Notes: generated from the sequence alone by a model not told the origin. A DNA stretch of 64,000 bases from Mobula birostris (GCF_030028105.1 NC_092398.1:25745649-25809648), one strand, 5' to 3'; shown: positions 7,701 through 62,894, numbered from the stretch's first letter. A program made the numbers and translations.

Positions 7701-10700
7701 AATGTGGGGAGGGAGGCGAGGGAGAGCTCAAGGGTGGAGAGAGAAAAGGAGGGGGGTGTAGGGGTGGGCAAGAGATTGGAGGGGACCAGGGAGGATGGGG
7801 AGGAAGGGCGAAGAATGGTTGGGGGGGGGGGTTGAGAAAACCTGTCAGGACCATGCTTTACCAGCAACTGAAGAATCAACAAACCAGTGGGCTAGTGGGT
7901 GGGGTGCAGGGGACCGAGACTCCACGGGGTGGGGTGTCCTCATTTGGGAGGTGGGACAACTCATGGGGAAGGGAGGGAGAGAGGGGGAGACCATGGACGT
8001 CCGGTGCTCCCTCTCTGAGGGGGTGGCGGCGGGTGTAAGAACCTTTCCACTGTACAGAGACCGTCGAACCCCCTTCCCCATCACTTCCATCCCCCAGAGA
8101 GGGGAGGGGAGGGGGATGTTACCTGGGTAGGGGGGAGCCCATTCACGTCGAGGAAGGAGAACAGCCCCCCGTGCTGTTGGTCCCAGCCCAAGCAGAATGG
8201 TCCAACCAGGAACCTCTCCAGCGCCGTCGCCATCAGCTCCTGTGAGCCCGTTGCCTCCGCCCATCGCAGGAGAAACCAGCCGGCCTCCAGCGCATGGCCT
8301 GTCCAACCAGAAGGGTGAGTACACCATCCGCGCACGCACACCCCGCCTCCCCACACCCGGTCCTCTCTCTCCCCATCGCAGGAGAAACCAGCTGTCCTCT
8401 GGCGTGTGGCCTGTCCCACTGTCCGCACACGCTCCTCGCCCCTTCTGCCTGACACTGCTGGAGCAGGTCTGCCTCCAGTGCACTGCACGTCCCACATCCC
8501 CTCCCCTCCCTCATTGTCCCCTCCGTTTGTGACCAAACCTCCTACCGTCCCTCCTCCCTACCTCGCTGTTCATTCCCTCCCGTCTGTCAAACCCTCACTG
8601 TCTCATTGTCCCCATCCTTCCCTTCTCACCTCCACTGACCCCCTCTCTGTCACTTCTCTCTCGTTCTCTCCGTCACCCTCCTCCAAGCCCCTCCCTCACC
8701 CCAGGGAATTCCCATCCCAAGAGAAGTAGGACCAGGCCTTGTAGTTCACCCTCCCCGGCTGAGGGAACCCCACCCCGGGGGGGTCCGGAAAGCACCGGGC
8801 CCTGGGAATCATGCATGGCCTGTACCTGGGTTCAGGAGCCTGCCCTGGCTCCCCGGGAGCTCCTTCCCTTCGGAGGACACAGTCTCCAGCACAGCCGTTC
8901 CGTCCCTCTGCATTGGGGCCGGGGGGGAGGGAGAAGAGTGGTGGGGGAGGAGGGGGTGGGAGGATGAAAAGAGGTAGGGGGTGAAAGGGGGTTTGAAAGG
9001 GGTGGGGGAGGTTGAAAGGGAGCGGAGAGTAGAATCAGCCAGGGTCCCTGCTCCCTATCACTGAGTATACAACACAGAGCAAGGGCAGGGGGCAGGGAGG
9101 GAGGAGGAACAAGCATTTGGGAAAACGAGGGTGATGGGGTCTGAAGGGGAGTGGAGGGGGGAAGGGGATTGGAGGTGGGGGAGTGGATGGGGTAGGGGAG
9201 TGGATGGGGTAGGGGAGTGGATGGGGAGCGGAGTGGAGATGGGGAGCGGAGTGGAGGGGGGTAGGGGAGTGGAGGGGGGTAGGGGAGTGGATGGGGAGGG
9301 GAGTGGAGTGGGGGAGGGGAGTGGAGTGGGGGAGGGGAGTGGAGGGGAGGGGAGGGGAGTGGAGGTGGGGGAGTGGAGTGGAGAATGGGAGGGGAGTGGA
9401 GGATGGGAGGGGAATGGAGGGGCAAGGGGAGCGGAGGGGGGGTAGGGGAGCGGAGGGGGGGTAGGGGAGCGGAGGGGGAAGGGGAGTGGAGCGGGGGAAG
9501 GGGATTGGAGGTGGGGGAGTGGAGTGGAGGGGGAGTGGATGGGGTAGGGGAGTGGATGGGGAGCGGAGTGGAGGGGGGTAGGGGAGTGGAGGGGGAGGGG
9601 AGGGGAGTGGGGGGAGGGGAGGGGAGGTGGGGGAGTGGAGTGGAGAATGGGAGGGGAGTGGAGGATGGGAGGGGAATGGAGGGGCAAGGGGAGAGGGGGG
9701 AGAGGAGGGGGGAAGGGGAGCGGAGGGGGGTAGGGGAGCGGAGGGGGGTAGGGGAGCGGAAGGGGAAGGGGAGCGGAAGGGGGAAGGGGAGTGGAGCGGG
9801 GGAAGGGGAGTGGAGGGGGGAGGAGGAGGATGGAGGATTGAGGGGTCATAGGCGAGTGTGAGGTGGAGGAGGACAGGGAAGGAACAGTCAAACTGCCTCC
9901 CCGTCACTGTCCAATGACCCCAGGGTTGGGAGGGCAGAAATTGGCCTGGGTTCCTCCCCTCTGCCCCACACATCCCAGTCGAGCCCCTCACCTTGCTCTG
10001 ATCCTTTACCTGCAGGTGTTGGAGGATTTTCCGCACGCTCCAATCTCCAACCTCCCAGTACTTCTGCTCGCTCTCCGACACGTCCTCCTCGAGCTGCTCG
10101 ACGAGGCACAGCAACATCATGGGCACCGCCAGTGAGCTGGTGTCCGGGGCCCCGGGCAGATGGGGGCGGCCCAGCCCAGCCGGGTCCACCCGAACCCAGT
10201 GACACACCTGGTCCATCATCAACAGCGCCTCCCTCTGCGGACAGGAGAGCGAGAGGGTGANNNNNNNNNNNNNNNNNNNNNNNNNNNNNNNNNNNNNNNN
10301 NNNNNNNNNNNNNNNNNNNNNNNNNNNNNNNNNNNNNNNNNNNNNNNNNNNNNNNNNNNNNNNNNNNNNNNNNNNNNNNNNNNNNNNNNNNNNNNNNNNN
10401 NNNNNNNNNNNNNNNNNNNNNNNNNNNNNNNNNNNNNNNNNNNNNNNNNNNNNNNNNNNNNNNNNNNNNNNNNNNNNNNNNNNNNNNNNNNNNNNNNNNN
10501 NNNNNNNNNNNNNNNNNNNNNNNNNNNNNNNNNNNNNNNNNNNNNNNNNNNNNNNNNNNNNNNNNNNNNNNNNNNNNNNNNNNNNNNNNNNNNNNNNNNN
10601 NNNNNNNNNNNNNNNNNNNNNNNNNNNNNNNNNNNNNNNNNNNNNNNNNNNNNNNNNNNNNNNNNNNNNNNNNNNNNNNNNNNNNNNNNNNNNNNNNNNN

Positions 10701-13700
10701 NNNNNNNNNNNNNNNNNNNNNNNNNNNNNNNNNNNNNNNNNNNNNNNNNNNNNNNNNNNNNNNNNNNNNNNNNNNNNNNNNNNNNNNNNNNNNNNNCNNN
10801 NNNNNNNNNNNNNNNNNNNNNNNNNNNNNNNNNNNNNNNNNNNNNNNNNNNNNNNNNNNNNNNNNNNNNNNNNNNNNNNNNNNNNNNNNNNNNNNNNNNN
10901 NNNNNNNNNNNNNNNNNNNNNNNNNNNNNNNNNNNNNNNNNNNNNNNNNNNNNNNNNNNNNNNNNNNNNNNNNNNNNNNNNNNNNNNNNNNNNNNNNNNN
11001 NNNNNNNNNNNNNNNNNNNNNNNNNNNNNNNNNNNNNNNNNNNNNNNNNNNNNNNNNNNNNNNNNNNNNNNNNNNNNNNNNNNNNNNNNNNNNNNNNNNN
11101 NNNNNNNNNNNNNNNNNNNNNNNNNNNNNNNNNNNNNNNNNNNNNNNNNNNNNNNNNNNNNNNNNNNNNNNNNNNNNNNNNNNNNNNNNNNNNNNNNNNN
11201 NNNNNNNNNNNNNNNNNNNNNNNNNNNNNNNNNNNNNNNNNNNNNNNNNNNNNNNNNNNNNNNNNNNNNNNNNNNNNNNNNNNNNNNNNNNNNNNNNNNN
11301 NNNNNNNNNNNNNNNNNNNNNNNNNNNNNNNNNNNNNNNNNNNNNNNNNNNNNNNNNNNNNNNNNNNNNNNNNNNNNNNNNNNNNNNNNNNNNNNNNNNN
11401 NNNNNNNNNNNNNNNNNNNNNNNNNNNNNNNNNNNNNNNNNNNNNNNNNNNNNNNNNNGTCTCTCAATTACAGAGGGGGAGACAGGGAGGATGAGGGAAA
11501 AGGGACGTACAGATACACATACAGACAAATACAGAGGGTCTCCACAAGACCCGAAGGTGTAGGAGCAGGATTATGTCATTTGGCCAATCGAGTCATCATA
11601 GCTGATCTACCCCCCCGCGCCCCCCCCCCAGATCCCTGCATGCCGTGACTAACCAATGCCTTAAATATACATAAAGACTTGTCCTCCCCAGCTGCCTGCG
11701 GCAACAAATTCCACAGATCCACCACTCTCTGGCTGAAGAAATTTCTCCTCATCTCCATTCTAAAAGGACACCCCTCTATTCTTGGGTTGTGTCTGCTGGT
11801 CTTAGACTCTCCCACTATATGAAACATCCACTTCACGTCCACTGTATCGAGGTCTTTCACCATTCGACAGCTTTCAATGAGGTCAACCCTCATTCCTCTG
11901 AAGCCTAGTGAATACAGGCCCAGAGCCTTCAGACACTCTTCGTACGACAAGCCGTTTAATCCTGGAATCATTTTCGTGAACCTCCTTTGAATCCTCTCCT
12001 GCGTCAGCATATCCTTTCTCAGATAAGCACCCAAAACTGCACACAATACTCCAAGTACCTCACCAGTGCTTTAAAGTCTCAACATTACATCCTTGTTTTT
12101 ATATTCTCGTCCTCTCAAAATGAATACGAGCATTGCATTTGCTGCCTCACCACAGACTCCACCTGCAAATTAACCTTTAGGGAATCCTGCAGAAGGACTC
12201 CCAAGTTCCTTTGCACCTCAGTGTTTTGTATGTTCTTTCCAGTTAGAAAATAGTCAACCCTTTCATTTCTTCTACTAAAGTGTGTGACCATACACTTCCT
12301 GACACTGTATTCCATCTGCCACTTCTTTGCCCATTCTCCTAATCTGTCCAAGGCTACGTCCACACTAGACCGGATAAATCCATAGCTGAAGCTTTTTCTC
12401 TTCGTTTTGAACTTCCGTCCACACTGAAACGGCGTTTTCCTCCCCTGAAAATGGAGCTTTTCAGAAACGCTCTCCAGAGTGAATTAATCTGAAAACGCCT
12501 AATATCCGGCGTAGTGTGTACGGGGTAACCGGCTATTTTTAAAACTGAGGCGCCGGAACAAATGGAGGCGGCAGCGCGACATTTCATTGTTTTCTTGAAC
12601 GCAGCCTCCAACACCACCACAACGATATCTGACAATAGGTGTGTAACAGCCTAACGTAACATTGTATGGAAATACAAGCTAACACTGATGCAGACATGTT
12701 TTATACATTGAACAAGGTGCTTTATTAATGTATTGCTTGTGCAAACAGTCAATAGATGCAATTGTCACTTTTGCCCAGTAACTCGTTTTATTGCACGTGT
12801 AAAATACAGCAAAATAATACATAAAGACGTGGCAAAAGTAAAGGCAAACAAATTTCACTTTTGCCCAGTTACAAGCCTCATTGCATTTAGTTGTAGCTGT
12901 CGTCCCTTTCATCGGTGAAGAGACTATGGCTGTAGGAAATGTTTCTGGACAAACGCGCACCAAGTCTTTTGTTTCGCAATTTCCTTTTAAGTTTTTCTAG
13001 TCTGTAACTGGACAAACGTGCCCCAAATATACCGTTTCCTCTTCACTTGTTTTCTGTGTGTGTGTGTCCTGCACATGCCCAGTAGGAGGAGATTCGCCCA
13101 AACAGCCATTTTAAAGTGGAAAGAGGTATTTTTAAAAACACCTAGTATGGACGCCTATCGTTTTTACGCGAAACCGGTGTTTTCAAAATTATCCGGTCTA
13201 GTGTGGATGACTCTTTCTAAGTCTTTTTGTAGCCTCTCTACTTCAACACTACCTGCCCCTCCACCTAACTTCATATCGCCCGCAAACTTTGCAGCAAAGT
13301 CACCAATTCCATCATGCAGACCATCGGCATACCTGGTATAGGTCCTGCCCAGTGACCCTCCACAGCTCGTCCATAGCCAGCACGTAGAAACACTCACTGA
13401 AGATGGTTCGCTGGACCTTGACCGCTCTTCCGTCCCGGCTGACACAGAAAGCCCGTTTCTGGCCCTCGCCAAAGGCCGCCGAGTGGCGCATCAGGAACTC
13501 CCCGCCTGAGGGAGGGAACCAACAGCCCCACACACCCGACATGTCAGTTAAGGAACGGTGGGAGGGGCGGCGAGGAGAGGAGGGAGCGCTATGCCGCAGG
13601 AGTGACGGTGAGGAGGGAGCACCGGACCGCAGGAGGGGAGGTAAGGGGGAAGCACAGAGCTTGCGGAGGGGCAACAAGGGCGGCCCACCATACCTCGGGG

Positions 13701-16700
13701 TAAACTCTATCATTGGGAAACTGGGCAAAGAAGTGGCAGGTGGAATACAGAGTAGGGAAGTGTCCAGTCATGCATTTTGGCAGAAGGAATAAAGGTGTGA
13801 ACTATTTTCTAAAACAGGGAGCAAATTTAGAAACCTGAGGCACAACAGGACTTGGGAGTCCTTGTGCAGGATTCCCTAAAGGCTAGTTTTCAGGTTGAGA
13901 CAGTGGCGAAGAAGGCAAATGCAACGTTAGCATTCATTTTGAGAGGAGTAGAATATAAAAGCAAGGATGTAATGCTGAGGCTTTATAAGGCACCGGTGAG
14001 GCCTCACTTGGGAGCAGTTTTGGGCCCCTTACCTAAGAAAGGATGTGCTGGCGTCGGACAGGGTTCAGAGGAGGATTACCAGCTTTATCCTGGGAATGAA
14101 AGGGTTAGTGTTTGAGGCTCTGGGGCTGAACTTGCTGGAGCTTAGAAGAATGAGGAGGAGGAGGGCATCTCATTGAAACCTTTCGAATCTTGAAAGGCCT
14201 AGACGGAGTGGATGTGAACAGGATGTTTCCGATAGTGCGGAGAGTCAAGGACCAGAGGACGGAACCACAGAATAGAGGGAGGTCCCTTTCAAATAGAGGT
14301 GAGGAGGAATTACCTTAGCCAGAGGGTGCTGAATCCGTGGAGTTCATTGTCGCAGACAGCTTATGGAGGCCAAGTCACTGGGTATATTTAAAGTATAAAT
14401 TGATAGCCTCCTGATTAGTCAGGGTGTCAACGGTTACAGGGAGAAGGCAGGAGAATGGGGTTGAGCGGGATAATAAATCAGCCATGTTGGAATGACGGAG
14501 CAGACTCGATGGGCTGAATGGCCTCACTCTGGTCCTACGCCTTATGGTCTTACCAGCTGTCGCTGCATCCAGCAATTCCTGTCGGCGAAAGCGAGGAACT
14601 TTCCGGTAAAGCCGGCAGTAAGTCCAGACCTGTGGAGGGAGGGCGACAAGGACACGTTTTACACATCACAAGACTCCCGCTGGAATACGGCTTTGGAACG
14701 TGGGAGGAAACCGGACTGCTCGGGGGAAAATCCACATGGTGATGAACTCCTTACAACCAGCGGCGGGAATCGCACCCCGATCTAGCAGGCTCGTAAACCT
14801 AGAACATGGAACAGCACAGGGTTTTTGGCCCTGGTAACACTCTAAGGTCAATCTAGCCCTTCCTTCCCACATAGCCCTCCAGTTTCCTTTCATCCATGTG
14901 CCTATCTAAGAGTCTCTTAAATGCCTCTAATATATCTGCCTCCACCACCATCCCTGGCAGGACGTTCCACACACCCACCACCCTCAGTGTAAAAAACCTA
15001 CTTCTGACATCCCCCCCCACCATACTTTCCTCCAATCAGCTTAAAATTATACCCCTCGTGTCAAACATTTCTCAAATTTATCAACACATTTTAGAACATA
15101 CTCTCAATGGCCACATTACTTGGTACCTCCTACACAAAATAAAGTGGCCACTGAGTTTATGTTTGTGGTTTTCTGCTGCTGTAGCCCATCCATTTCAAGG
15201 TGCGACATGTTGTGTGTTCGGCGATGTTCTTCTGCACACCACTGTTGCAACACGTGGTTATTTGAGCTACTGTCGCCTTCCTGTCGGCTTGAACCAGCCT
15301 GGCCATTCTCCTCTGACCTCTCTCGTTTTCACCCACAGGACTGCTGCTCACCGGATGTTTTCTTTTTGTTTTTCACACCATTCTCTGTAAACTCTAGAGA
15401 CCGTTGTGCATGGAAGTCCCGGGAGATCAGCAGTTTCTGAGATACCCAAAGTTCAAAGTACACTTATTATCAAAGTATGTACACATACAACCTTGAGATT
15501 CGTCTCCTAACAGACAGCCCGGAAACAAAGAAACCCAACAGAGCCCATTTTTAAAAATCTATGACACACCCAACGTGCAGAGAGGGGGGAGAATAAACAC
15601 GAGCAAATAGTGTTCTGAAGGGAGAGTTCTTTCACAGACCCTCAGCTCAGCGTAGGACCGAGCAGCAAGCTAAACTGGTCGTCCCTCGCCTCAGACCCTG
15701 CCAATCTGGCCCGGTAGCTGAATCGTCGCCAAACATCGGATTCGGTTACTTCCACGCGCTCTGAGGCTTGATGCTGCTGCAACCTTTCCAATTCGGAACA
15801 GCGCTTAAATCCTGTCACCCCATCTGGCACCAACAATCGTTCCGTGGTCAAAGTCACTGAGATCACGTTTCTTCCTCATTCTGAACAACTGAACCTCTTG
15901 ACCATGTCTGCGTGCTTTTATGCATTGAGTTGCTGCCTCTCCGGTGAAATGATATTGTATTTGTTAAATCATGTCTGCGTGCTTTTATGCATTGAGTTGC
16001 TGCCTCTCCGGTGAAATGATATTGTATTTGTTAAATGGGGGCTGTGCACAATTCTGATTTGATGGAGACAGCCATGAGAGCACGGAGGAACATCTGGAGA
16101 AACTTCTGAAATGCCCGGTTCGCTGCCGCTGCTGCTGTGCAATCGAGAATCTCTGGAGGGAAGGCCCCAAATCCTCGGCTTTGCCTGCTGCTGGTGGCCG
16201 GGGCTGGAGTCGAAGCACTCGGCAAAGATGGTGCTCGGTGTTGGAGGGCTGGTCGGAGGCTCAAAGTTTTCGGACAACTCAGAGTCGGACTGTGGTTGGA
16301 CATGGCAGGGAGAGTTTTCTTCCTTCTCCCGTCTGCGTGAGATGTGGGACTTTTGAGAGACTTTGAACTTTTTACCGTGCCCATGGCCTGTTCTTCATCA
16401 AGTTAAAGTATTGCTTGCACTGTTGTAACTATATGTTATAATTACGTGGTTTTTGTCAGTTTTTGAGTCTTGGTCTGTCTTGTGTTTCTGAGATATCACA
16501 CTGGAGGAATATTGTATCATTTCTTAATGCATGTATTACTAAATAACAATAAAAGAGGACTGTGTGTCCTCATAATCTAATCTAATCTAACATGATTGGC
16601 TGATTTAGTCATAGTCATACTTTATTGATCCCAGAGGAAATTGATTTTCGTTACAGTTACACCATAAATAATTAAATAGTAATGAAACCATAAATAATTA

Positions 16701-19700
16701 AATAGTAATATGTAAATTATGCCAGGCAACAAGTCCAGGACCAGCCTGTTGGCTCAGGGTAACACTCATAACACGCTGGAGGAACTCAGCAGGTCGGCCC
16801 GAAACGTCGACCGATCTTTTCTACGGATGCTGCCCGACCTGCTGAGTTCCTCCAGCGTGTTGTGAGTGTTGCTTTGACCCCAGCATCTGCAGATTATTTT
16901 GTGTTTACTATTGGCTCAGGGTGTCTGACCCTCCAAGGGAGGAGATGTAAAGTTTGATGGCCACAGGCAGGAATGATTTCCTATGACGCTCTGTGCTGCA
17001 TCTCGGTGGAATGAGTCTCTGGCTGAATGTACTCCTGTGCCCACCCAGTACATTATGTAGTGGATGGGAGACATTGTCCAAGATGGCATGCAACTTGGAC
17101 AGCATCCTCTTTTCTGACACCACTGTCAGAGTCGATTTGATATTTGCATTAACAAGTCGGTGTACACACGCATCCAATCAAGTCACCGCCGAGTGCACAG
17201 TGAAATTCTTACAGTGTACCTCCTCACCACCCACCCACCCACCTTCCCCCTCACCTGGTCTGACCTATCACCTGCCAGCCTGTCCTCCTTCCCCTCCATT
17301 CTGCAACCCGTCTTCTTACTCTGGCTTCCTCCCCCTCCCTTTCCAGTCCTGATGACGGGTCTCGGCCCGAAACGTCGACTGTCGACTCCACTCTGTAGAT
17401 GCTGCCTGACCTGCTGAGTTTCTGCAGCGTTTTGTGTGCAGGACCTCCTGAGTGGAGGAAGGATGTGCTTGTGCTCAAGGGAGTGTGGAGGAGACTCACG
17501 GGGAGAAATGGCACGTTTGCCCACGAGCGAAGGTCACCGAGACCCTTTATCAAGGGTGCTGGTCCGAAACGTTGGCTGCTTATTCATTTCCACAGATGAC
17601 CCCTGACCTGCTGCGCGAGTCGTTCTGGATCTCCAGCATCTGCAGAGTCTCGTGAGAATGGGAAGCTTGCTTGCAGGGGCATCTCAAGCAGGCAGATACA
17701 GACAACCCGCACAATATAAACCGTGCAAAAATCAGCCAGGACACCGAAGAAAGGGCACGTAAAATTAAACATCTATGCAGAACAAAGAATTAGGCCATTC
17801 AGCGCATCGAGTCTTCTCTGCCATTCCGTCATGGCTGATTTATTATCCCTCTCAACCTTCTCCCCAAAACGCTTAACCAATCAAAAGCATATCACTCTCT
17901 GCCTTCAATATCCCAGTGAACTGCAGAGATGAACCACTCTTTGGCTAAAGAAATTCCTCCTCGTCTCTGTTCTAAAGGGACACCGTTCTACTTCGAGGCT
18001 GTGCCCTCTGGTCCTAGACTCCCTCGCTATAGGAAACATCCTCTCCATGTCCACTCTATCTGGGCCTTTCAATATTCGATGGGTTTCAGTGAGATCTCCC
18101 CCCCACCCCATCCATTCTTCTGAACTCCAGTGAGCCATCAAACATTCTTCACACGTTAACCCTTTCATTCCTGGGATCAACCTCATCAACCTCTGAGGGT
18201 GACCAGCACATCCTTACTTAGGTAAAGGCATCTGTTAGTCTTGCAAGACCATTGATCTGCGCCTGGAAAGTCTTCACTCTCCAGGGCGCAGGCTTGGGCA
18301 AGGTTGTATGGAAGACCGGCAGTTGCCCATGCTGCAAGTCTCCCCTCTCCATGACACCGATGTTGTCCAAGGGAAGGGCATTAGGACCCATACCAGTGTC
18401 ATCGCAGAACAATGTGTGATTAAGTGCCTTGCTCAAAGGCACAACACATTGCCTCGGCTGGGGCTCGAACTCACAACCTTCAGGTCGCTAGTCCAATGCC
18501 TTAACCACTTGGCCACGTGCCCACAGTACTTAGATAAGCGACCCAAAATCTCTCACGATACTCTAACTGCGGTCTGATCAATCTATTACAATGGCTCATT
18601 AATGCCTTTGAAAAGGTAGTGAATTCAGCTCACAGGTAAACACCTCCCAGCCATTGACCACATCGACATGAAACGCTGTTGTAGGGAAGCAACATCCATC
18701 CTCAGGCCCCACCACCAAGGCCGCGCTCTTGCCTCGCTGCTGCCATCAGGTAGAAGGCACAGGAGCCTCAGGACTCACACCACCAGGTTCAAGATCAGTT
18801 ACCACCCCTCAACCATCAGGATCTTGAACTAAAGGGAATAACTACACTCACTTGCCCCATCACCAAGATGTTGCCACAACCGATGATCTCACTTTAAGGA
18901 CTCTTCATCTCGTTATCTGACGTTCTCGTTACCTATTGCTATTTATTTGTATTTGCACAGTTTGTGATCTTCTGCACTCCGGTTGATCTTTACTTTATTT
19001 TATTGTCGCCAAACAATTGACACTAGAGCGAACAATCATCACAGCGATATTTGATTCTGCGCTTCCCGCTCCCTGGTTTACAAATTGATAGTAAATATTA
19101 AATTATAAATCATAAATAGAAAAGGGGAAGTAACATAGTGCAAAAAAAAAAAACAAGAGGCAGGTCCGGATATTTGGAGGGTACGGCCCAGATCCGGGTC
19201 AGGATCCGTTCAGCAGTCTTATCACAGTTGGAAAGAAGCTGTTCCCAAATCTGGCCGTACGAGTCTTCAAGCTCCTGAGCCTTCTCCCAGAGGGAAGAGG
19301 GACGAAAAGTGTGTTGGCTGGGTGGGTTGTGTCCTTGATTATCTTTCATCGATCCTGTTATAGTTACTATTCTATAGATTTGCTGAGTATGCCCGCAGGG
19401 AAATGAATCTCTGGGTTGTATGTGGTGACATAAGTAGTATAAAATTTATGTTGAACTTTGAGCATTACATCCTCACTTTCAAATTCTACTCCTCTCAAAA
19501 TGAACGCTAACATGGCATTTGCCTTCCTTATCACCGACTCAACCTGCAAGTTAACCTTTAGGGAATTCTGCACGCAGACTCCCAAGCCCCTTTGCACCTC
19601 AGGTTTCTGAATTTGCTCCACTTAGAAAGTAGCCCATGCCTTCATTCCTTCCACCAAAGTGCATCACCATACACTTCCTGACACTGTATTCCACCTGCCA

Positions 19701-20729
19701 GTTTTGTGCCCGTTCTTCTAATCTGTCCAAGTCCTTCTGCAGCCTCTGTTTCTGCAACACTACCTGCCCCTCCACCCATTACACAATTTAATATTTTCTT
19801 TTGAAGAATTTCTGCATATGTCAAGCCTGTAAACTTGTCTTAAACCCTGTGCTGTGCTGGACAAGTACACGCAACAACAAAGTCAGCTTTGAGAACGAGA
19901 AGCGATCAGGGAGATCCCTATAGACCGTAAAGCAGCCGAGATTATTGTCAAACTGGAGATGGTGTGGAGAAGGTGGAGGGGGTGCGTACCCTGTCACTGG
20001 TCCAGGGTTCGTCCCAGCTGTTCGCTCACCTGTCTTCCCTGCAGCCAGATATATTTTAATTCATCGTAGACAGAACCATCGCGACTCAGACACGTGAAAA
20101 AGCCCCTGCGAGGTAAAGTTCTCAAAGATCAGGGACTCCATCCTCACCGCCTCTCCCTCCCTGCCCTCCCTCTCACGGTGCGCCCTCCTTGCTGCCCAAC
20201 CCGTCCCACTCCTTTTCAGCTTGTCGCTCCTCCCACAGTGATCCCTCTCCCTCCTCGCTGCCCCTCTCATGGCTCTTACTCTCCTCGCAGCCACCTCCAA
20301 AGGCGCTCACCCCCATGACACTCCCTGTCCCTCCCACGGTGATTCCTCTCTTCCTCCCTTGCAACCGCCTCACAGTGCTCTCTCTCCTTCACTGCCCCCT
20401 CTTCCTCTCAACTCCCCTCCTACGATAATCCCTCTCTCCCCCGCTGCCCCCTCGTACTCTCCAACTCCCTCACTACCCCTCCTACAGAGTTCTCTCCCTC
20501 ACTGTCCCCTCCCACGGGGCTGACTCTCTCCCTCACTGTCCCTCCCATGGCACTTCATCTCTCCATTGCCACCCCTCCCACGGCACTCCTCCTCCTTCCC
20601 CCCCACCCCGACGCCGTGGACCCCTCACCCAAACTCTGGGTCATGGGAAAACTTCAGCCAGAAGTCAACGGTCCGGTCCAGCTCCTTGCGGATTTTATGC
20701 CGGAAACCTTCGAGCTCTTCCCGCGACAT
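4780..20729 (-). CDS. RENBP: N-acylglucosamine 2-epimerase (renin-binding protein), 10 coding exons, 402 aa
   Basis: Minus-strand coding exons, all GT-AG and in phase: 20629-20729 ([34 protein letters not shown]), 20030-20105 ([25 protein letters not shown]), 14554-14629 ([10 protein letters not shown]..), 13333-13505 (..[12 protein letters not shown]..), 10010-10234, 8826-8907, 8123-8298 ([11 protein letters not shown]..), 7388-7519 ([14 protein letters not shown]..), 5950-6037 (..GEWYGYL..KGGPFK), 4780-4859 (GCFHLPR..stop). Total 1209 nt. AGE-family active-site motifs QGR, FSE, PGHxxE, WW and CFHxPR are all present. Confidence 0.96.
5012..5350 (+). mobile_element. RTE-related short interspersed repeat (second copy at 1-305)
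   Basis: Two similar copies. The 3' part (AATGGCAAACCACTT..TTTGCCAAGAA..ACGACACGG, TGA-type tail) resembles RTE/Bov-A-like ends. Confidence 0.6.
9130..9840. repeat. G-rich polypurine low-complexity tract in a RENBP intron
   Basis: Degenerate GGGGAGTGGAGGGGGGTA repeats with an internal block duplication. Confidence 0.85.
10261..11458. other. Assembly gap (N run)
   Basis: About 1.2 kb of N inside a RENBP intron. The flanking coding exons join in frame with no missing protein segment. Confidence 0.98.
11545..13332 (-). mobile_element. CR1 LINE 3' fragment (split by MITE)
   Basis: [63 protein letters not shown]. Confidence 0.85.
12351..13213. mobile_element. Non-autonomous TIR element (PIF/Harbinger-like MITE) nested in a CR1
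   Basis: Perfect 19-bp inverted repeat TCCACACTAGACCGGATAA (12359-12377 / 13189-13207). CR1 sequence resumes colinearly on both sides. Confidence 0.7.
13695..14553 (+). mobile_element. CR1 LINE 3' fragment with (TCTTATGG)-type tail
   Basis: [33 protein letters not shown], followed by a CR1 3' UTR that ends CCTTATGGTCTTAC at the RENBP exon boundary. Confidence 0.85.
17344..17381 (+). ncRNA. Minimal type I hammerhead ribozyme motif (Penelope-associated), intact core
   Basis: CAGTC-CTGATGA-C-GGGT(CTCG)GCCC-GAAA-CG-TC^-GACTG: stem I CAGTC/GACTG, CUGANGA and GAAA boxes, 4-bp stem II, palindromic ACGT in place of stem III, GUC cleavage triplet. Confidence 0.7.
18222..18522 (-). mobile_element. 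tRNA-headed SINE with RTE-like tail (further copies 32235-32445, 53695-54005)
   Basis: Minus-strand head GGGCACGTGGCCAAGTGGTTAAGGC..GAGTTCGAGCCCC; three similar copies are visible in the window. Confidence 0.7.
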
Positions 20730-21599
20730 CCCTGCAGGCCAGACCAGCGGGAAAAGTGGTCAGCCAACGGTGGGGAGGGGGCAAATCAGGGACACTTCCT
20801 GTCTGCCCCACACCACCTCCAGCCCCACCCTCATCCCATGCATATCCCTCCTCACTTCACTCACACGTTACATACTCTTTTGCTCCAAACTCACACTTCC
20901 CTGAGACTCCATCATCCTCTCCTTCAGTTCAACCCTACCCCATTTTCCTTTAATACACCCTCCCTCCCCTTCACCCAAATCTGAAACCCCTAATACATCC
21001 CTCTCCCCTTTTCCTATCTCCCCTCGTCTCCACTCTCCTTCTGTCTTCTCCACTTTACCCACCACCCTTCCCACTGTCCCCTCCCCTCAACTACACTTCT
21101 CTCTCACCTCTCCCTTCCCTGCCCCCTCCAGCCTCTTCCCCTTTTCTTCCCCCATACTGCCCTCTTCCTCCCATCCTCTTCACCCTCTCCCTTTCTTTTC
21201 TGCCCCTTCCCTCCCCTCCCATTCTCCCCCTCTCCTCCCCAGTCCTATTCTCCCCTCCTTCTCTCTCCCCCTCCTCTCCCTCTGTCAACCCCATCCCCTC
21301 CTTCTCCCCCTCAGCCCCTCCCTCCCTCTCCCCATCTCCTCCTTCTCCCCCCAGCCCCTCTCTCCCTCTCCCTCCTTCTCCCCCCTCAGCCCCTCCCTCC
21401 CTCTCCCTATCCCCTCCTCCCCCCTCGGCCCCTCCCCATCCCCTCCTCCCCCTCAGCCCCTCCCCTCCATCTCACCCTCAGCCCCTCCCCCTTCCCTCCT
21501 ACTCCCTATCATTCTCCCGCTCTTCCTATCCCCTCATCCCCTCTGCTCTCCCATTCTATCCGCTCACCCGCCACTCTCCTACACCTCATCTCACTCCGC

Positions 21600-21760
21600 G
21601 CTGTTCACTCACTCAATCACTCTCGGTCCCGAGACTCCAGTCAGCTGCTCACTCCCCGGCTGCGCCTGCGCACTCGATATCCCTCGCCGCCGCTACCCCG
21701 CTGTGGCGGCGGCGTGACGTCACCGCGTCTTGAGCGGAAACTTCAGATCCGGATCCGACC
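21600..21760 (-). promoter_or_regulatory. RENBP promoter / non-coding exon 1
   Basis: Small CpG-rich unique island with CRE TGACGTCA at 21715-21722, NRF1-like TGCGCCTGCGCA at 21661-21672 and candidate GTGAG donors at about 21610 and 21650. The first coding exon has its own acceptor at 20731, so an upstream exon is expected. Confidence 0.6.
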
Positions 21761-21771
21761 TTTTGACCTCT

Positions 21772-24700
21772 GCCCCTCCTCCCTCCGACTCACACCCCTC
21801 ACTCCGCCCCCCTCCTCCTCCGACTCACACCCCTCACTCCGCCCCCCTCCTCCCTCCGACTCACACCCCTCACTCCGCCCCCCTCCTCCCTCCGACTCAC
21901 ACCCCTCACTCCGCCCCCCTCCTCCCTCCGACTCACACCCCTCACTCCACCTCCCTCCGACTCACACCCCTCACTCCGCCCCCCTCCTCCCTCCGACTCA
22001 CACCCCTCACTCCACCCCCCTCCTCCCTCCGACTCACACCCCTCACTCCACCTCCCTCCGACTCACACCCCTCACTCCACCTCCCTCCGACTCACACCCC
22101 TCACTCCACCTCCCTCCGACTCACACCCTTCACTCCACCTCCCTCCGACTCACACCCCTCACTCCGCCCCCCTCCTCCCTCCGACTCACACCCCTCACTC
22201 CACCTCCCTCCGACTCACACCCCTCACTCCACCTCCCTCCGACTCACACCCCTCACTCCACCTCCCTCCGACTCACACCCCTCACTCCGCCCCCCTCCTC
22301 CCTCCGACTCACACCCCTCACTCCACTCCCTCCGACTCACACCCCTCACTCCACCTCCCTCCGACTCACACCCCTCACTCCACCTCCTCCGACTCACACC
22401 CCTCACTCCGCCCCCCTCCTCCCTCCGACTCACACCCCTCACTCCGCCCCCCTCCTCCCTCCGACTCACACCCCTCACTCCGCCCCCCTCCTCCCTCCGA
22501 CTCACACCCCTCACTCCACCTCCTCCTCCCTCCGACTCACACCCCTCACTCCACCCCCTCCTCCCTCCGACTCACACCCCTCACTCCACCCCCTCCTCCC
22601 TCCGACTCAGACCCCTCACTCCGCCCCCTCCTCCCTCCGACTCACACCCCTCACTCCGCCCCCCTCCTCCCTCCGACTCACACTCCTCACTCCACCTCCC
22701 TCCGACTCACACCCCTCACTCCACCCCCTCCTCCCTCCGACTCACACCCCTCACTCCAACTCCCTCCGACTCACACCCCTCACTCCACCCCCTCCTCCCT
22801 CCGACTCACACCCCTCACTCCGCCCCCCTCCTCCCTCCGACTCACACCCCTCACTCCAACTCCCTCCGACTCACACCCCTCACTCCACCCCCTCCTCCCT
22901 CCGACTCACACCCCTCACTCCACCTCCCTCCGACTCACACCCCTCACTCCACCCCCTCCTCCCTCTGACTCACACCCCTCACTCCAACTCCCTCCGACTC
23001 ACACCCCTCACTCCACCCCCTCCTCCCTCCGACTCACACCCCTCACTCCGCCCCCCTCCTCCCTCCGACTCACACCCCTCACTCCGCCCCCCTCCTCCCT
23101 CCGACTCACACCCCTCACTCCAACTCCCTCCGACTCACACCCCTCACTCCACCCCCTCCTCCCTCCGACTCACACCCCTCACTCCACCTCCCTCCGACTC
23201 ACACCCCTCACTCCACCCCCTCCTCCCTCCGACTCACACCCCTCACTCCAACTCCCTCCGACTCACACCCCTCACTCCACCCCCTCCTCCCTCCGACTCA
23301 CACCCCTCACTCCACCTCCCTCCGACTCACACCCCTCACTCCACCCCCTCCTCCCTCCGACTCACACCCCTCACTCCGCCCCCCTCCTCCCTCCGACTCA
23401 CACCCCTCACTCCACCTCCCTCCGACTCACACCCCTCACTCCACCCCCTCCTCCCTCCGACTCACACCCCTCACTCCACCCCCTCCTCCCTCCGACTCAC
23501 ACCCCTCACTCCGCCCCCCTCCTCCCTCCGACTCACACCCCTCACTCCGCCCCCCTCCGACTCACACCCCTCACTCCACCCCCTCCTCCCTCCGACTCAC
23601 ACCCCTCACTCCACCTCCCTCCGACTCACACCCCTCACTCCACCCCCTCCTCCCTCCGACTCACACCCCTCACTCCAACTCCCTCCGACTCACACCCCTC
23701 ACTCCACCCCCTCCTCCCTCCGACTCACACCCCTCACTCCGCCCCCCTCCTCCCTCCGACTCACACCCCTCACTCCAACTCCCTCCGACTCACACCCCTC
23801 ACTCCACCCCCTCCTCCCTCCGACTCACACCCCTCACTCCACCTCCCTCCGACTCACACCCCTCACTCCACCCCCTCCTCCCTCCGACTCACACCCCTCA
23901 CTCCAACTCCCTCCGACTCACACCCCTCACTCCACCCCCTCCTCCCTCCGACTCACACCCCTCACTCCACCTCCCTCCGACTCACACCCCTCACTCCACC
24001 CCCTCCTCCCTCCGACTCACACCCCTCACTCCGCCCCCCTCCTCCCTCCGACTCACACCCCTCACTCCACCTCCCTCCGACTCACACCCCTCACTCCACC
24101 CCCTCCTCCCTCCGACTCACACCCCTCACTCCACCCCCTCCTCCCTCCGACTCACACCCCTCACTCCGCCCCCCTCCTCCCTCCGACTCACACCCCTCAC
24201 TCCGCCCCCCTCCTCCCTCCGACTCATACCCCTCACTCCGCCCCCCTCCTCCCTCCGACTCACACCCCTCACTCCACCTCCCTCCGACTCACACCCCTCA
24301 CTCCACCCCCTCCTCCCTCCGACTCACACCCCTCACTCCACCTCCCTCCGACTCACACCCCTCACTCCACCCCCTCCTCCCTCCGACTCACACCCCTCAC
24401 TCCGCCCCCCTCCTCCCTCCGACTCACACCCCTCACTCCGCCCCCCTCCTCCCTCCGACTCACACCCCTCACTCCGCCCCCCTCCTCCCTCCGACTCACA
24501 CCCCTCACTCCACCCCCTCCTCCCTCCAACTCACACCCCTCACTCCGCCCCCCTCCTCCCTCCGACTCACACCCCTCACTCCGCCCCCCTCCTCCCTCCG
24601 ACTCACACCCCTCACTCCACCTCCCTCCGACTCACACCCCTCACTCCACCCCCTCCTCCCTCCGACTCACACCCCTCACTCCACCTCCCTCCGACTCACA

Positions 24701-27700
24701 CCCCTCACTCCACCCCCTCCTCCCTCCGACTCACACCCCTCACTCCACCCCCCTCCTCCCTCCGACTCACACCCCTCACTCCGCCCCCCTCCTCCCTCCG
24801 ACTCACACCCCTCACTCCGCCCCCCTCCTCCCTCCGACTCACACCCCTCACTCCGCCCCCCTCCTCCCTCCGACTCACACCCCTCACTCCGCCCCCCTCC
24901 TCCCTCCGGCTCACACCCCTCACTCCACCTCCCTCCGACTCACACCCCTCACTCCACCCCCTCCTCCCTCCGACTCACACCCCTCACTCCACCTCCCTCC
25001 GACTCACACCCCTCACTCCACCCCCCTCCTCCCTCCGACTCACACCCCTCACTCCGCCCCCCTCCTCCCTCCGACTCACACCCCTCACTCCGCCCCCCTC
25101 CTCCCTCCGACTCACACCCCTCACTCCGCCCCCCTCCTCCCTCCGACTCACACCCCTCACTCCGCCCCCCTCCTCCCTCCGACTCACACCCCTCACTCCA
25201 CCTCCCTCCGACTCACACCCCTCACTCCACCCCCTCCTCCCTCCGACTCACACCCCTCACTCCACCTCCCTCCGACTCACACCCCTCACTCCACCCCCCT
25301 CCTCCCTCCGACTCACACCCCTCACTCCACCCCCCTCCTCCCTCCGACTCACACCCCTCACTCCGCCCCCCTCCTCCCTCCGACTCACACCCCTCACTCC
25401 GCCCCCCTCCTCCCTCCGACTCACACCCCTCACTCCGCTCCCTCCGACTCACACCCCTCACTCCGCTCCCTCCGACTCACACCCCTCACTCCGCCCCCCT
25501 CCTCCCTCCGACTCACACCCCTCACTCCGCCCCCCTCCTCCCTCCGACTCACACCCCTCACTCCGCCCCCCTCCTCCCTCCGACTCACACCCCTCACTCC
25601 GCCCCCCTCCTCCCTCCGACTCACACCCCTCACTCCGCCCCCCTCCTCCCTCCGACTCACACCCCTCACTCCGCCCCCCTCCTCCCTCCGACTCACACCC
25701 CTCACTCCGCCCCCCTCCTCCCTCCGACTCACACCCCTCACTCCGCCCCCCTCCTCCCTCCGACTCACACCCCTCACTCCGCCCCCCTCCTCCCTCCGAC
25801 TCACACCCCTCACTCCGCCCCCCTCCTCCCTCCGACTCACACCCCTCACTCCGCCCCCTCCTCCCTCCGACTCACGCCCTTCACTCCACCTCCCTCCTCC
25901 CTCCGACTCACACCCCTCACTCCACCCCCCTCCTCCCTCCGACTCACACCCCTCACTCCACCCCCCTCCTCCCTCCGACTCACACCCCTCACTCCACCCC
26001 CTCCTCCCTCCGACTCACACCCCTCACTCCGCTCCCTCCGACTCACACCCCTCACTCCACCCCCCTCCTCCCTCCGACTCACACCCCTCACTCCACCCCC
26101 CTCCTCCCTCCGACTCACACCCCTCACTCCGCCCCCCTCCTCCCTCCGACTCACAACCCTCACTCCACCTCCCTCTGACTCACACCCCTCACTCCACCCC
26201 CCTCCTCCCTCCGACTCACACCCCTCACTCCGCCCCCCTTCTCCCTCCGACTCAGACCCCTCACTCCGCCCCCCTCCTCCCTCCGACTCACACCCCTCAC
26301 TCCGCCCCCCTCCTCCCTCCGACTCACACCCCTTACTCCACCCCCTCCTCCCTCCGACTCACACCCCTCACTCCACCTCCCTCCGACTCACACCCCTCAC
26401 TCCACCCCCCCTCCTCCCTCCGACTCACACCCCTCACTCCGCCCCCCTCCACCCTCCGACTCACACCCCTCACTCCGCCCCCCTCCTCCCTCCGACTCAC
26501 ACCCCTCACTCCGCCCCCCTCCTCCCTCCGACTCACACCCCTCACTCCGCCCCCCTCCTCCCTCCGACTCACACCCCTCACTCCGCCCCCTCCTCCCTCC
26601 GACTCACACCCCTCACTCCACCCCCCTCCTCCCTCCGACTCACACCCCTCACTCCACCCCCCTCCTCCCTCCGACTCACACCCCTCACTCCGCTCCCTCC
26701 GACTCACACCCCTCACTCCACCCCCCTCCTCCCTCCGACTCACACCCCTCACTCCACCCCCCTCCTCCCTCCGACTCACACCCCTCACGCCGCCCCCCCT
26801 CCTCCCTCCGACTCACAACCCTCACTCCGACTCACACCCCTCACTCCGCCCCCCTCCTCCCTCCGACTCACACCCCTCACTCCGCCCCCCTCCTCCCTCC
26901 GACTCACACCCCTCACTACGCCCCCCTCCTCCCTCCGACTCAGACCCCTCACTCCGCCCCCCTCCTCCCTCCGACTCACACCCCTCACTCCGCCCCCCTC
27001 CTCCCTCCGACTCACACCCCTCACTCCACCCCCTCCTCCCTCCGACTCACACCCCTCACTCCACCTCCCTCCTCCCTCCGACTCACACCCCTCACTCCGC
27101 CCCCGCCTCCCTCCGACTCACACCCCTCACTCCGCCCCCCTCCTCCCTCCGACTCACACCCCTCACTCCGCCCCTCTCCTCCCTCCGACTCACACCCCTC
27201 ACTCCGCCCCCCTCCTCCCTCCGACTCACACCCCTCACTCCGCCCCCCTCCTCCCTCCGACTCACAACCCTCACTCCAACTCCCTCCGACTCACACCCCT
27301 CACTCCACCCCCCTCCTCCCTCCGACTCACACCCCTCACTCCGCCCCCCTTCTCCCTCCGACTCAGACCCCTCACTCCGCCCCCCTCCTCCCTCCGACTC
27401 ACACCCCTCACTCCGCCCCCCTCCTCCCTCCGACTCACACCCCTCACTCCACCCCCCTCCTCCCTCCGACTCACAACCCTCACTCCACCTCCCTCCGACT
27501 CACACCCCTCACTCCACCTCCCTCCGACTCACACCCCTCACTCCACCCCCCTCCTCCCTCTGACTCACACCCCTCACTCCACCTCCCTCCTCCCTCCGAC
27601 TCACACCCCTCACTCCACCTCCCTCCGACTCACACCCCTCACTCCACCTCCCTCCTCCCTCCGACTCACACCCCTCACTCCACCCCCCTCCTCCCTCCGA

Positions 27701-30150
27701 CTCACACCCCTCACTCCACCCCCTTCCTCCCTCCGACTCACACCCCTCACTCCGCCCCCCTCCTCCCTCCGACTCACACCCCTCACTCCGCCCCCCTCCT
27801 CCCTCCGACTCACACCCCTCACTCCGCCCCCCTCCTCCCTCCGACTCACACCCCTCACTCCGCCCCCTCCTCCCTCCGACTCACACCCCTCACTCCACCC
27901 CCCTCCTCCCTCCGACTCACACCCCTCACTCCACCCCCTTCCTCCCTCCGAATCACACCCCTCACTCCGCCCCCCTCCTCCCTCCGACTCACACCCCTCG
28001 CTCCACCCCCCTCCTCCCTCCGACTCACACCCCTCACTCCACCCCCCTCCTCCCTCCGACTCACACCCCTCGCTCCGCCCCCCTCCTCCCTCCGACTCAC
28101 ACCCCTCACTCCACCCCCCTCCTCCCTCCGACTCACACCCCTCACTCCACCCCCCTCCTCCCTCCGACTCACACCCCTCACTCCACCCCCTTCCTCCCTC
28201 CGACTCACACCCCTCACTCCACCCCCCTCCTCCCTCCGACTCACACCCCTCACTCCACCCCCCTCCTCCCTCCGACTCACACCCCTCACTCCACCCCCCC
28301 CTCCCTCCGACTCACAACCCTCACTCCACCCCCCTCCTCCCTCCGACTCACACCCCTCACTCCACCCCCTCCTCCCTCCGACTCACACCCCTCACTCCAC
28401 CCCCTCCTCCCTCTGACTCACACCCCTCACTCCACCCCCCTCCTCCCTCCGACTCACACCCCTCACTCCACCCCCCTCCTCCCTCCGACTCACAACCCTC
28501 ACTCCACCTCCCTCCGACTCACACCCCTCACTCCACCTCCCTCCGACTCACACCCCTCACTCCGCCCCCTCCTCCCTCCGACTCACACCCCTCACTCCAC
28601 CCCCCTCCTCCCTCCGACTCACAACCCTCACTCCACCCCCCTCCTCCCTCCGACTCACAACCCTCACTCCACCCCCTCCTCCCTCCGACTCACACCCCTC
28701 ACTCCACCCCCCTCCTCCCTCCGACTCACAACCCTCACTCCACCCCCCTACTCCCTCCGACTCACACCCCTCACTCCACCTCCCTCCGACTCACACCCCT
28801 CACTCCACCCCCCTCCTCCCTCCGACTCACACCCCTCACTCCACCCCCCTCCTCCCTCCGACTCACACCCCTCACTCCACCCCCCTCCTCCCTCCGACTC
28901 ACACCCCTCACTCCACCCCCCTCCTCCCTCCGACTCACACCCCTCACTCCACCTCCCTCCGACTCACACCCCTCACTCCACCCCCCTCCGACTCACACCC
29001 CTCACTCCACCCCCTCCTCCCTCTGACTCACACCCCTCACTCCACCCCCCTCCTCCCTCCGACGCACACCCCTCACTCCACCCCCCTCTTCCCTCCGACT
29101 CACACCCCTCACTCCACCCCCCTCCTCCCTCCGACTCACAACCCTCACTCCACCTCCCTCCGACTCACACCCCTGACTCCGCCCCCTCCTCCCTCCGACT
29201 CACACCCCTCACTCCACCCCCCTCCTCCCTCCGACTCACAACCCTCACTCCACCCCCTCATCCCTCCGACTCACACCCCTCACTCCACCCCCTCCTCCCT
29301 CTGACTCACACCCCTCACTCCACCCCCCTCCTCCCTCCGACGCACACCCCTCACTCCACCCCCCTCCTCCCTCCGACTCACAACCCTCACTCCACCTCCC
29401 TCCGACTCACACCCCTGACTCCGCCCCCTCCTCCCTCCGACTCACACCCCTCACTCCACCCCCCTCCTCCCTCCGACTCACAACCCTCACTCCACCCCCT
29501 CATCCCTCCGACTCACACCCCTCACTCCACCCCCCTCCTCCCTCCGACTCACACCCCTCACTCCACCCCCCTACTCCCTCCGACTCACACCCCTCACTCC
29601 ACCTCCCTCCGACTCACACCCCTCACTCCACCCCCCTCCTCCCTCCGACTCACACCCCTCACTCCACCCCCCTCCTCCCTCCGACTCACAACCCTCACTC
29701 CACCTCCCTCCGACTCACACCCCTCACTCCACCTCCCTCCGACTCACACCCCTCACTCCACCCCTCACTCCACCTCCCTCCGACTCACACCCCTCACTCC
29801 ACCTCCCTCCGACTCACACCCCTCACTCCGCCCCCTCCTCCCTCCGACTCACACCCCTCACTCCACCCCCTCCTCCCTTCGACTCACACCCCTCACTCCA
29901 CCCCCCTCCTCCCTCCGACTCACACCCCTCACTCCGCCCCCTCCTCCCTCCGACTCACACTCCTCACTCCGCTTCTCTCCTCCCTCCGACTCACACCCCT
30001 CACTCCAACCCCTCCTCCCTCCGACTCACACCCCTCACTCCGACACACACACTTCACTCAGCCCCCCTCCTCCCTCCGACATAAGCTCCTCGCTCGGCCC
30101 CCCTCCTTTGACATACAACCCTCACTCCACTCACCTCCGACACACGCCCC
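21772..30150. repeat. 8.4 kb minisatellite, 36/35/29-bp unit variants
   Basis: Core unit CCGACTCACACCCCTCACTCC(G/A)CCCCCCTCCTCCCT; short variant CCGACTCACACCCCTCACTCCACCTCCCT; degenerate right edge. Confidence 0.97.
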
Positions 30151-30377
30151 TCACTAAAAGCAACATTTTGAACAACAGTCGAAAATTAGGCATGTTTAAT
30201 TGTGGGTGGAGGGATTGTTGAGGGATGGGGTACACAGTCGGTACACCGCAGGCTGCAGAGACAGAGACCATTAAAGCACGCTGTAAACTGATCTCACGGG
30301 GGAAGGGAGGGTAGGACGGAAAGGTGGAGGCAGGTTGGGACGGGGTGGCGAGGATGGGTTAGGACGGACGGCTTCCC

Positions 30378-33790: not shown

Positions 33791-34511
33791 GCTTGTGGAC
33801 TGCCCCCCTTCCCCCAGCAAAACAAAAAATGAACCCAACTCATGCCAGGCAAAATCTTTCACAAACAAGAAAATCTGCAGATGCTGGAAATCCAAGCAAC
33901 TCACAAAAATGCTGGAGGAGCTCAGCAGGCCAGGCAGCATCTCTGGAAAAGAGTACAGTCAACGTTTCAGGCAGAGACTCTACTCATTCCCATAGACGCT
34001 GCCTGGCCTGCTGAGTTCCTCCAGCACTTTGTGTTGCCAGGCAAAGGCTTTCCTTCTCGACCCTGGTGTGCCCAGCAGTTTGCCAGCTGAGATGCTCAGA
34101 GGAATCAGTTGACCTGCTGGGCCCTATTAATATTGACAAGATCAAAGGCTCTGGCGTAGCCTGCAGTCTGCCTTCTGACCGTCTTGGGTAACCGTAGCAG
34201 TGAGTGTAACGCTTTAAACCGCCAGCAAACTCCGCCGCTGCCTGTAAGGAGTGTGTACGTTCTCCCCTGTGTGGGTTTCCTCCGGGTGCTCCCGTGTCCT
34301 CCCACGTTCCAGAGACGCAGAGGGTGAGTGAACTGTGAGCACCAGAAGTGCGGTGACATTTGTGGGCAGCTCCCCCAGCGCCAGAACAATCCTCAGACTG
34401 CGCTGGTTGTTGCCACAAGCAAGGCATTTCACTCTATGTTCTGATGCACCTGTGACGAACAATTCCCTCAGTTCCTTCTGTGCCTCCCTCTGAGTACTCG
34501 AGGGACCTTAC

Positions 34512-47990: not shown

Positions 47991-48237
47991 CCAAACCCAA
48001 CCGTGCCCCCTTCTCGGACTGAGAAGCAGCGCCGCCCTGCGGCTTGGAGGTCTCATTGCGTCAGGCCCAGGGAGTCGTGGAAGGGGCACAAGACCAGATT
48101 CAAATGTCGTGACATTTGTTAACTTTACGGCAGCAGTACAAATAAAATACATTGTAAATAAGTATAGAAAAAATACCAAGCTACATTAACGACAAGGCAC
48201 ATAAAAATTGGCCAGGCAGCATCTTTAGGAAAAGGCA

Positions 48238-48630: not shown

Positions 48631-48764
48631 CATTAATGACATATATGTCCACCAAATAGTTATGTTCAATAGGTAGTGAAATAAAACAGAAATTTTTTAA
48701 AAAGTATTGAAGTGGAATATAAGTATAATATAATATAGTGAATATAAGTCCTTTAGATAAAGAA

Positions 48765-52352: not shown

Positions 52353-52391
52353 ATATATGGTGAATGATGTTGATTTTTGATTACGATCACA

Positions 52392-60333: not shown

Positions 60334-62894
<2,561 letters not shown>

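Follow-up and report, generated by a model that had tools for sequence, protein, structure and literature searches.

The motif and its host locus

The window (the whole 64-kb stretch of Mobula birostris DNA analysed here) carries on its minus strand the RENBP gene (N-acylglucosamine 2-epimerase), which extends over 4783-20729 with about ten coding exons located by tblastn. One of its introns holds, on the opposite strand, a fragment of a Penelope-like element (PLE) that includes a 38-base minimal type I hammerhead motif. The features of this region are the following:

14633-20026, minus strand: RENBP intron, between coding exons 20104-20027 and 14632-14543 (tblastn, Pfam PF07221)
17206-17343, plus strand: what is left of the element's 3' untranslated stretch, rich in pyrimidines (5' limit approximate, at 17206-17244)
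17344-17381, plus strand: whole minimal type I hammerhead motif (sequence and descriptor match)
17344-17348, plus strand: stem I 5' strand, CAGUC (CAGTC), pairing with 17377-17381
17349-17355, plus strand: CUGAUGA core box, C3-A9 (sequence; consensus in the PMC4209133 supplement)
17356, plus strand: additional base separating A9 from G10.1 (C in this copy, A in the family; within the published H)
17357-17368, plus strand: stem II, GGGU/GCCC, 4 bp with a 4-nt loop, CTCG (pairing; U.G becomes U-A in subfamily C)
17369-17376, plus strand: GAAA box (17369-17372), ACGU palindrome replacing helix III (ACGT, 17372-17375) and GUC triplet (GTC, 17374-17376)
17377-17381, plus strand: stem I 3' strand, GACUG (GACTG), pairing with 17344-17348
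17382-17438, plus strand: pseudo-LTR sequence after the motif, without a tail, which stops close to the shorter of the two 3' ends of the family

An initial annotation had given the letters, stems, palindrome and GUC triplet of this motif, and its quoted reading agrees with the plus strand letter for letter over the 38 bases. The motif gives the single match to a minimal-hammerhead descriptor in the window, and is the sole intact copy there; block-wise dinucleotide shuffles of the window gave 0/200 matches. The CUGANGA and GAAA boxes and the NUH triplet are present in type I order, helix III is absent (the palindromic positions 15.2-16.2 being ACGT), the extra H after A9 is met by C17356 and the G10.1-C11.1 pair by G17357-C17368. 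The sequence fits the published consensus of PLE minimal type I hammerheads (NNN CUGANGAH G..C GAAAN palindrome NUH NNN; PMC4209133), a class lacking helix III that the annotation had rightly ascribed to PLEs. The cut site is predicted after 17376 from hammerhead numbering. A scan of the window with Rfam covariance models (E<=10) returned 18 matches, none of them to a hammerhead family, presumably because these models expect helix III; the miRNA and plastid matches were rejected as hairpins formed by head-to-head pseudo-LTR copies. The extra nucleotide after A9 had also been noticed, and it is allowed by the published H, but the C is not a family-wide feature: A occupies this position in 98 of the 100 family matches listed, and the C is private to this copy. 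The related point about an extra base after A9 in CChMVd appears in PMC4209133 as a citation only.

The copy is an end fragment of about 230 nt (about 17206-17438), with no ORF remnant directly upstream, which groups by sequence clustering with the older subfamily B and differs from the subfamily B consensus at 1/38 motif positions. It lies antisense to RENBP and, this gene being on the minus strand, the RENBP pre-mRNA would hold the reverse complement of the motif, which is no ribozyme. As a backwards stub in an intron the copy is probably inert. The private C17356 can pair with G12, and the predicted inactive fold is 2.3 kcal/mol deeper than that of an A-type copy (-15.0 vs -12.7 kcal/mol). 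The idea of a self-cleaving system gains no support from this particular copy, which has no ORF and no intact partner and is antisense to its host gene. None of the contigs from the RNA runs bridged its unique flanks, and they are uninformative on its expression.

A query with the upstream tract only matched 23 other places, 13-14 of which have a GIY-YIG remnant within 500 nt upstream, including 38702-39186 in the window. It had been claimed that the same pyrimidine tract follows GIY-YIG remnants at 39200-39430 and 57200-57455; the first case stands (82% over 55 nt with 39341-39395, E 1e-7), but the second gave no match at E<=1e-4 and belongs to another subfamily, A. At the 5' edge of stem I this tract ends in CAG/TAG (17325-17346 in the window, and the same place in all subfamilies), resembling a splice acceptor, and in the Penelope of D. 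virilis an intron ends at helix I (PMC4209133). Inspection by eye of the 9 listed short, non-inverted copies whose start lies between -21 and 0 revealed no upstream exon in common.

Other copies and features in the window

All nine of the related copies previously listed (roughly ten in 64 kb) exist (several lie on the minus strand), yet not one of them matches the descriptor. CUGANGA is not intact in the copies near 16796, 17545, 33955 and 39428, those at 48472 and 57457 carry G8>A and that at 62270 carries A9>G. The core is kept at 52524, with loss of the palindrome and stem I, and at 48334, where stem I is lost and the copy lies within a 31-bp near-perfect hairpin. The corresponding features are:

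16767-16906, no single strand: pseudo-LTR ends in head-to-head arrangement; GAAACGUC is retained on the plus-strand piece, CUGANGA is not
17533-17654, plus strand: decayed pseudo-LTR end, on the same strand as the 17344-17381 motif and 197 nt downstream of it; it retains GAAACGUU but not CUGANGA
33862-34034, no single strand: head-to-head pseudo-LTR ends; core broken at 33988 (minus)
38702-39500, plus strand: PLE remnant of the same subfamily as the 17344-17381 copy, with linker and GIY-YIG pieces, 3' tract and a decayed motif near 39428
48235-48632, no single strand: two head-to-head pairs of pseudo-LTR ends; at 48366 (minus) core intact, stem I lost
52387-54176, minus strand: broken PLE RT/linker remnant, adjoining head-to-head pseudo-LTR ends with motifs at 52521 (minus) and 52524 (plus)
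56684-57590, plus strand: PLE remnant of subfamily A that retains the GIY-YIG end, the 3' tract, a motif (G8>A at 57462) and the tail
62172-62304, minus strand: pseudo-LTR end stub, beginning 2 nt before C3; A9>G

The RT remnant is split by a tRNA-like insertion, probably a SINE, at 53740-53990 (minus strand; weak Rfam tRNA match at 53938-53997). Remnants of a LINE-type RT (Pfam E 7e-27) and endonuclease (E 1e-6) lie at 49196-50185 and 2619-3200, both on the plus strand. A SNORA70 snoRNA (60880-61016, minus strand, Rfam E 8e-16) is found beside a ribosomal protein L10e exon (61055-61402, minus strand, Pfam), which is the usual host arrangement. The roughly 10 kb at about 20300-30200 are C-rich and either tandem or of low complexity (GC ~0.69, GC skew ~-0.88), and contain stop-free frames of more than 2,000 codons; weak Pfam matches on low-complexity frames were taken as chance.

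The parent element

A search of the genome with the element's RT as query gave 131,924 first-look candidates, and 15 of 134 scored matches, picked for long open frames, were examined. Their frames (734-1014 aa) form a single ORF with an RT and, at the C-terminus, a GIY-YIG domain, separated by a linker, CKRNKCYTC (CX4CX2C, which fits CX2-5CxxC). The Pfam matches of the element ORF, RVT_1 (E 8e-7) and GIY-YIG (E 7e-4), each fall slightly short of the curated cut-off, and its homologues carry PF00078 and, in some cases, PF01541. A CX2-5CxxC linker between RT and endonuclease is described for Neptune and shared with Nematis (PMC8557442), and the element is, judged by its domain and linker features, an endonuclease-bearing (EN+) PLE of the Neptune/Nematis type. 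The element protein shares 88-94% of its residues with Mobula proteins, 78-81% with those of Hypanus and 67-72% with those of sharks. Two ray proteins named as kinase-domain and chitinase-domain isoforms match the PLE ORF at 78-88%, and are probably gene models that took in PLE sequence.

The placement of the motif at a Penelope-type terminus, as had been proposed, is well founded: a 3' motif occurs in 15/15 of the long-ORF elements, about 290-320 nt past the ORF/endonuclease end (measured from the stop codon in 14 copies; in L070 the frame reads through), and the subfamily tract is tied to GIY-YIG remnants. Six of the 15 have an inverted copy on their 5' side. In a second genome search, with the 5' part of the ORF as query, 16 of 30 loci have a same-strand motif about 330 nt upstream, and all 16 also have a second same-strand motif, at a spacing of 3.5-3.75 kb in 14 and 0.8-1.0 kb in 2; both motifs are intact in 8/16. 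The motif is thus present throughout both sets of RT/GIY-YIG elements (15/15 and 16/16). The lack of a direct 5' pseudo-LTR in the first 15 loci was rejected as a real feature and attributed, in view of the 16 two-motif loci, to 5' truncation. The order of the full unit is: motif, about 165 nt, ATG (the first of the long frame, counted from C3), ORF (RT, CX4CX2C linker, GIY-YIG), about 300 nt of pyrimidine-rich sequence, and second motif. With a motif at both ends, a single transcript would contain a pair of them separated by 3.5-3.75 kb, and two same-strand motifs per element is the geometry that a dimer needs. None of the 16 two-motif loci has an unbroken ORF from the ATG to the endonuclease end (0/16), and there is no live master among them.

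Some young copies (L056, L060) have an internal duplication of about 210 nt in the proline-rich N-terminal part of the ORF, which accounts for unit lengths of about 3.5 and 3.7 kb. In two internally shortened elements, L240 and L241, a pair of intact hammerheads lies on the same strand, at a distance of 784 and 1,041 nt, and these elements are possible starting points for retrozyme-like units.

Abundance

The near-exact motif has 1,215 matches in the 4.0-Gb genome, and a CpG-tolerant degenerate core pattern, which requires neither the stem I 5' strand nor an intact palindrome, has 53,712 exact matches, with 0 in reversed controls. A sample of sixty 10-kb stretches at round coordinates (600 kb) contained 125 pseudo-LTR ends, which extrapolates to about 8 x 10^5 genome-wide with head-to-head pairs counted twice, and 10 descriptor-intact motifs, equivalent to roughly 3-12 x 10^4 genome-wide (Poisson interval, worked by hand). 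Of the 600,000 sampled bases, 24,796 (about 4%) belong to the element, and the description of the repeat as a very abundant family, made from the window, applies to the genome. Contigs from 7 different RNA runs, mostly of guessed type, place the repeat in several organisms; contigs cannot show RNA ends.

Conservation, decay and covariation

Three subfamilies, A, B and C, were assigned from the sequence downstream of the motif only, and the motif consensuses of all three keep 11/11 core bases. Individual copies decay neutrally. In subfamily B non-CpG mismatches affect 60/467 core and 193/1513 flank positions (12.8% each), in subfamily A 7/201 (3.5%) and 10/554 (1.8%), and excess core conservation among individual copies was found in neither of them by this comparison. 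Such a result is expected from dead copies, and has no bearing on membership. Intact motifs were present in 9 of 60 fully covered random copies (8 of subfamily A and 1 of subfamily B, the latter out of 27), the other 65 of the 125 sample matches being without full motif cover.

Subfamily C differs from the others in its stems. In stem I, U2.1-A1.1 replaces C2.1-G1.1, one compensatory change (U2.1 in 19/23 copies of C vs 6/40 of B, p 1e-7; A1.1 in 25/34 copies of C vs 20/52, p 0.002), in stem II U-A replaces U.G (17/29 vs 7/53), and the triplet is GUU in place of GUC. Of the 37 aligned pieces that came from 35 targeted C loci, 19 missed the core box and were left out there. CpG decay is an unlikely origin of the U17/A1.1 of subfamily C, as both are common together (29/34 and 25/34) and U2.1 is outside a CpG. 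Covariation is absent among single copies: of 100 listed U2.1 copies, one has U17/A1.1 and most keep G1.1. In contigs of another organism, the U-A pair of stem II was found in 4 contigs and the family's A at the extra base in 5.

These changes, a handful of events, support selection in master lineages. The weight of the covariation is modest, with one double and one single-side change among three related subfamilies. Between subfamilies, moreover, the motif and the sequence that follows it are conserved to about the same degree, and conservation alone does not single out catalysis. The check on conservation and covariation proposed with the annotation gave a divided answer: the consensuses keep the core and have changes in stems I and II, but the copies have no excess core conservation.

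Copy ends and predicted folding

Among 54 unselected young copies, 16 have their 5' start at -13 to +5 from C3, the front edge of the motif (most of them head-to-head junctions), and none (0/54) starts at the cut site (+28; range +24 to +36). A pile of starts at about -247 was discarded as an alignment artefact of the reference copy. The 5' ends of copies overall form a continuum that reaches into the ORF. The 3' ends cluster around +95 and +130 from C3, about 35 nt apart, which is the one-sided tail of PLEs. The ends suggest that the template is uncut RNA starting near the front edge of the motif. The proposal that the whole family is a self-cleaving RNA system is therefore only partly sustained: abundance, the core in the consensus and some covariation speak for it, but the copies decay neutrally, 9/60 are intact and their ends are off the cut site.

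In a nearest-neighbour energy model, which ignores core contacts, an inactive fold is favoured both in the monomer (-15.0 vs -9.5 kcal/mol) and in the dimer (-38.3 vs -20.1 kcal/mol). The dominant young subfamily (L056-L070, L226-L241) combines C7 with G10.1.U11.1; with these the core box can pair with the cut site and stem II is weakened, a predicted off state. For the motif of L064 with 110 nt added, the prediction is that the downstream sequence forms a long stem, a candidate RT-binding site, with its 3' arm finishing close to the two 3' ends of copies.

Relation to known elements

Minimal hammerheads in both pseudo-LTRs of metazoan PLEs, including Xena, Poseidon and Neptune of fish, were described by Cervera and De la Pena in 2014 (PMC4209133). 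The motif class and the pseudo-LTR arrangement have been known since then, and the ray copy is a further member. It shares with the published motifs the type I organization, the lack of helix III, the palindromic N15.2-N16.2, the extra H, the G10.1-C11.1 pair and a short helix I, as well as the presence in both pseudo-LTRs and the mostly solitary copies genome-wide, whereas its helix II has 4 bp instead of the usual 5-8, yet inside the published range. The 53,712 pattern matches exceed the 4,000 of coelacanth and the 9,000 of Xenopus tropicalis given in that paper, with search methods that differ. The alignment examined from its supplement includes no cartilaginous fish.

In the Poseidon element of Anolis carolinensis (PAc, PMC11167929), too, the hammerhead lies where pseudo-LTR and ORF meet, the tail is made by two 3' ends located downstream, and there is no sign of ends at the cut site; the PAc ORF, however, starts at stem II, while the long-frame ATG of the ray element lies about 165 nt after C3. 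The ray element has the CX2-5CxxC linker, absent from Poseidon (PMC8557442). With the EN+ elements Neptune and Nematis (Craig et al. 2021, PMC8557442) it shares the C-terminal GIY-YIG, the CX4CX2C linker, the partial-tandem pseudo-LTR, the inverted 5'-truncated copy and the one-sided tail of 30-40 bp. The non-LTR retrozymes of animals (bioRxiv 10.64898/2026.07.22.740005; PMC7229834) likewise carry type I hammerheads from PLE pseudo-LTRs, but form tandem arrays of a short unit, in contrast with the solitary or head-to-head truncations of a coding element seen here. In the literature on hammerheads or Penelope in sharks, elasmobranchs and ray genomes, no report of this ray PLE hammerhead family was found, and the main text of the ray genome preprints searched does not mention Penelope elements or ribozymes, though the family makes up about 4% of the 600-kb sample.

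Origin of the copy and competing explanations

The motif at 17344-17381 is very probably the minimal type I hammerhead of an EN+ PLE pseudo-LTR, carried by a 5'-truncated end fragment that lies antisense in a RENBP intron and is likely inert. From known PLE biology, two such motifs would build helix III by pairing of their ACGU palindromes and cleave slowly after GUC, probably aided by the element's protein. Minimal hammerheads of Schistosoma cleave slowly as dimers (PMC4209133), and cleavage by the Anolis PLE requires protein and is not required for insertion in vitro (PMC11167929). The ribozyme may be held by selection only in a few master elements. Reverse transcription would begin in the sequence 95-130 nt downstream, mostly copying uncut RNA, and this copying would scatter some 10^5-10^6 end fragments that then decay neutrally; the 17344-17381 copy would be one such fragment that still happens to fit the descriptor.

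The absence of copy starts at the cut site, the inactive fold favoured in silico and a flank conserved as much as the core across subfamilies would also suit a hammerhead-derived sequence that never cleaves and persists only as a pseudo-LTR fold or as part of an RT-bound promoter, and so would the hammerhead mutants of the Anolis element, which leave insertion unaffected (PMC11167929), and the Naiad PLEs, which thrive without a canonical hammerhead (PMC8557442). Such a relic or structural signal is nevertheless unlikely, as the between-subfamily changes fall at tolerated sites (N7, H17 and still-paired stems) and at 0 of 11 core bases, a pattern that with about 6 changes in 36 positions is weak alone (about 0.09, hand calculation), and as the minimal hammerheads of other PLEs do cut, slowly as dimers (PMC4209133) or with protein (PMC11167929).

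Most copies are short and have no ORF, and these could be taken for an independent non-autonomous family (retrozyme or SINE), transcribed, self-cleaving and spreading as small circles, a possibility favoured by the two shortened units with intact motifs 0.8 and 1.0 kb apart (2/16 loci) and by the report that one chondrichthyan genome has non-LTR retrozymes descended from PLE pseudo-LTRs (bioRxiv 2026.07.22.740005). The continuum of 5' ends into the ORF and the copy ends away from the cut site make it very improbable, as do the same-strand pairs within 1 kb in the 600-kb sample, which have both motifs intact in 0/11 cases, and the 33 opposite-strand pairs within 1 kb, which fit PLE inverted insertions. 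No tandem array of short non-coding hammerhead units exists at the 17344-17381 locus.

That this copy itself is active or kept by the host, for example by cutting antisense RNA in the RENBP intron, where the partial copies at 16794 or 17546 would serve as substrate strands, is scarcely credible: it is unusually close to its consensus (1/38 against an average non-CpG divergence of about 13% in subfamily B, where only 1/27 fully covered random copies are intact) and two same-strand neighbours no more than 560 nt away keep GAAACGUH, but it was chosen for being intact among tens of thousands of intact ones, is antisense to RENBP, and its private C, able to pair with G12, deepens the inactive fold.

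Significance

Under the preferred reading, a decayed pseudo-LTR end of an EN+ PLE, the locus itself carries little weight, as it is a single decaying member of a motif class published in 2014. The many copies of varied age in this genome are good material for asking what PLE hammerheads do. Their ends favour uncut templates, in agreement with the in vitro result from Anolis, and the covariation between subfamilies favours continued selection. A broader picture, improbable as a whole, would have 30,000-120,000 intact minimal hammerheads in the genome, above the published counts compared here, with fossil copies recording the use of the ribozyme, a competing hairpin restraining it and selection on master elements maintaining it; cutting would occur only with two motifs and protein, perhaps freeing or silencing the coding RNA, and the template would be the uncut RNA that starts at the front edge. 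If this were true, sense-strand intronic copies could be cut in host pre-mRNAs wherever the element's protein is made.
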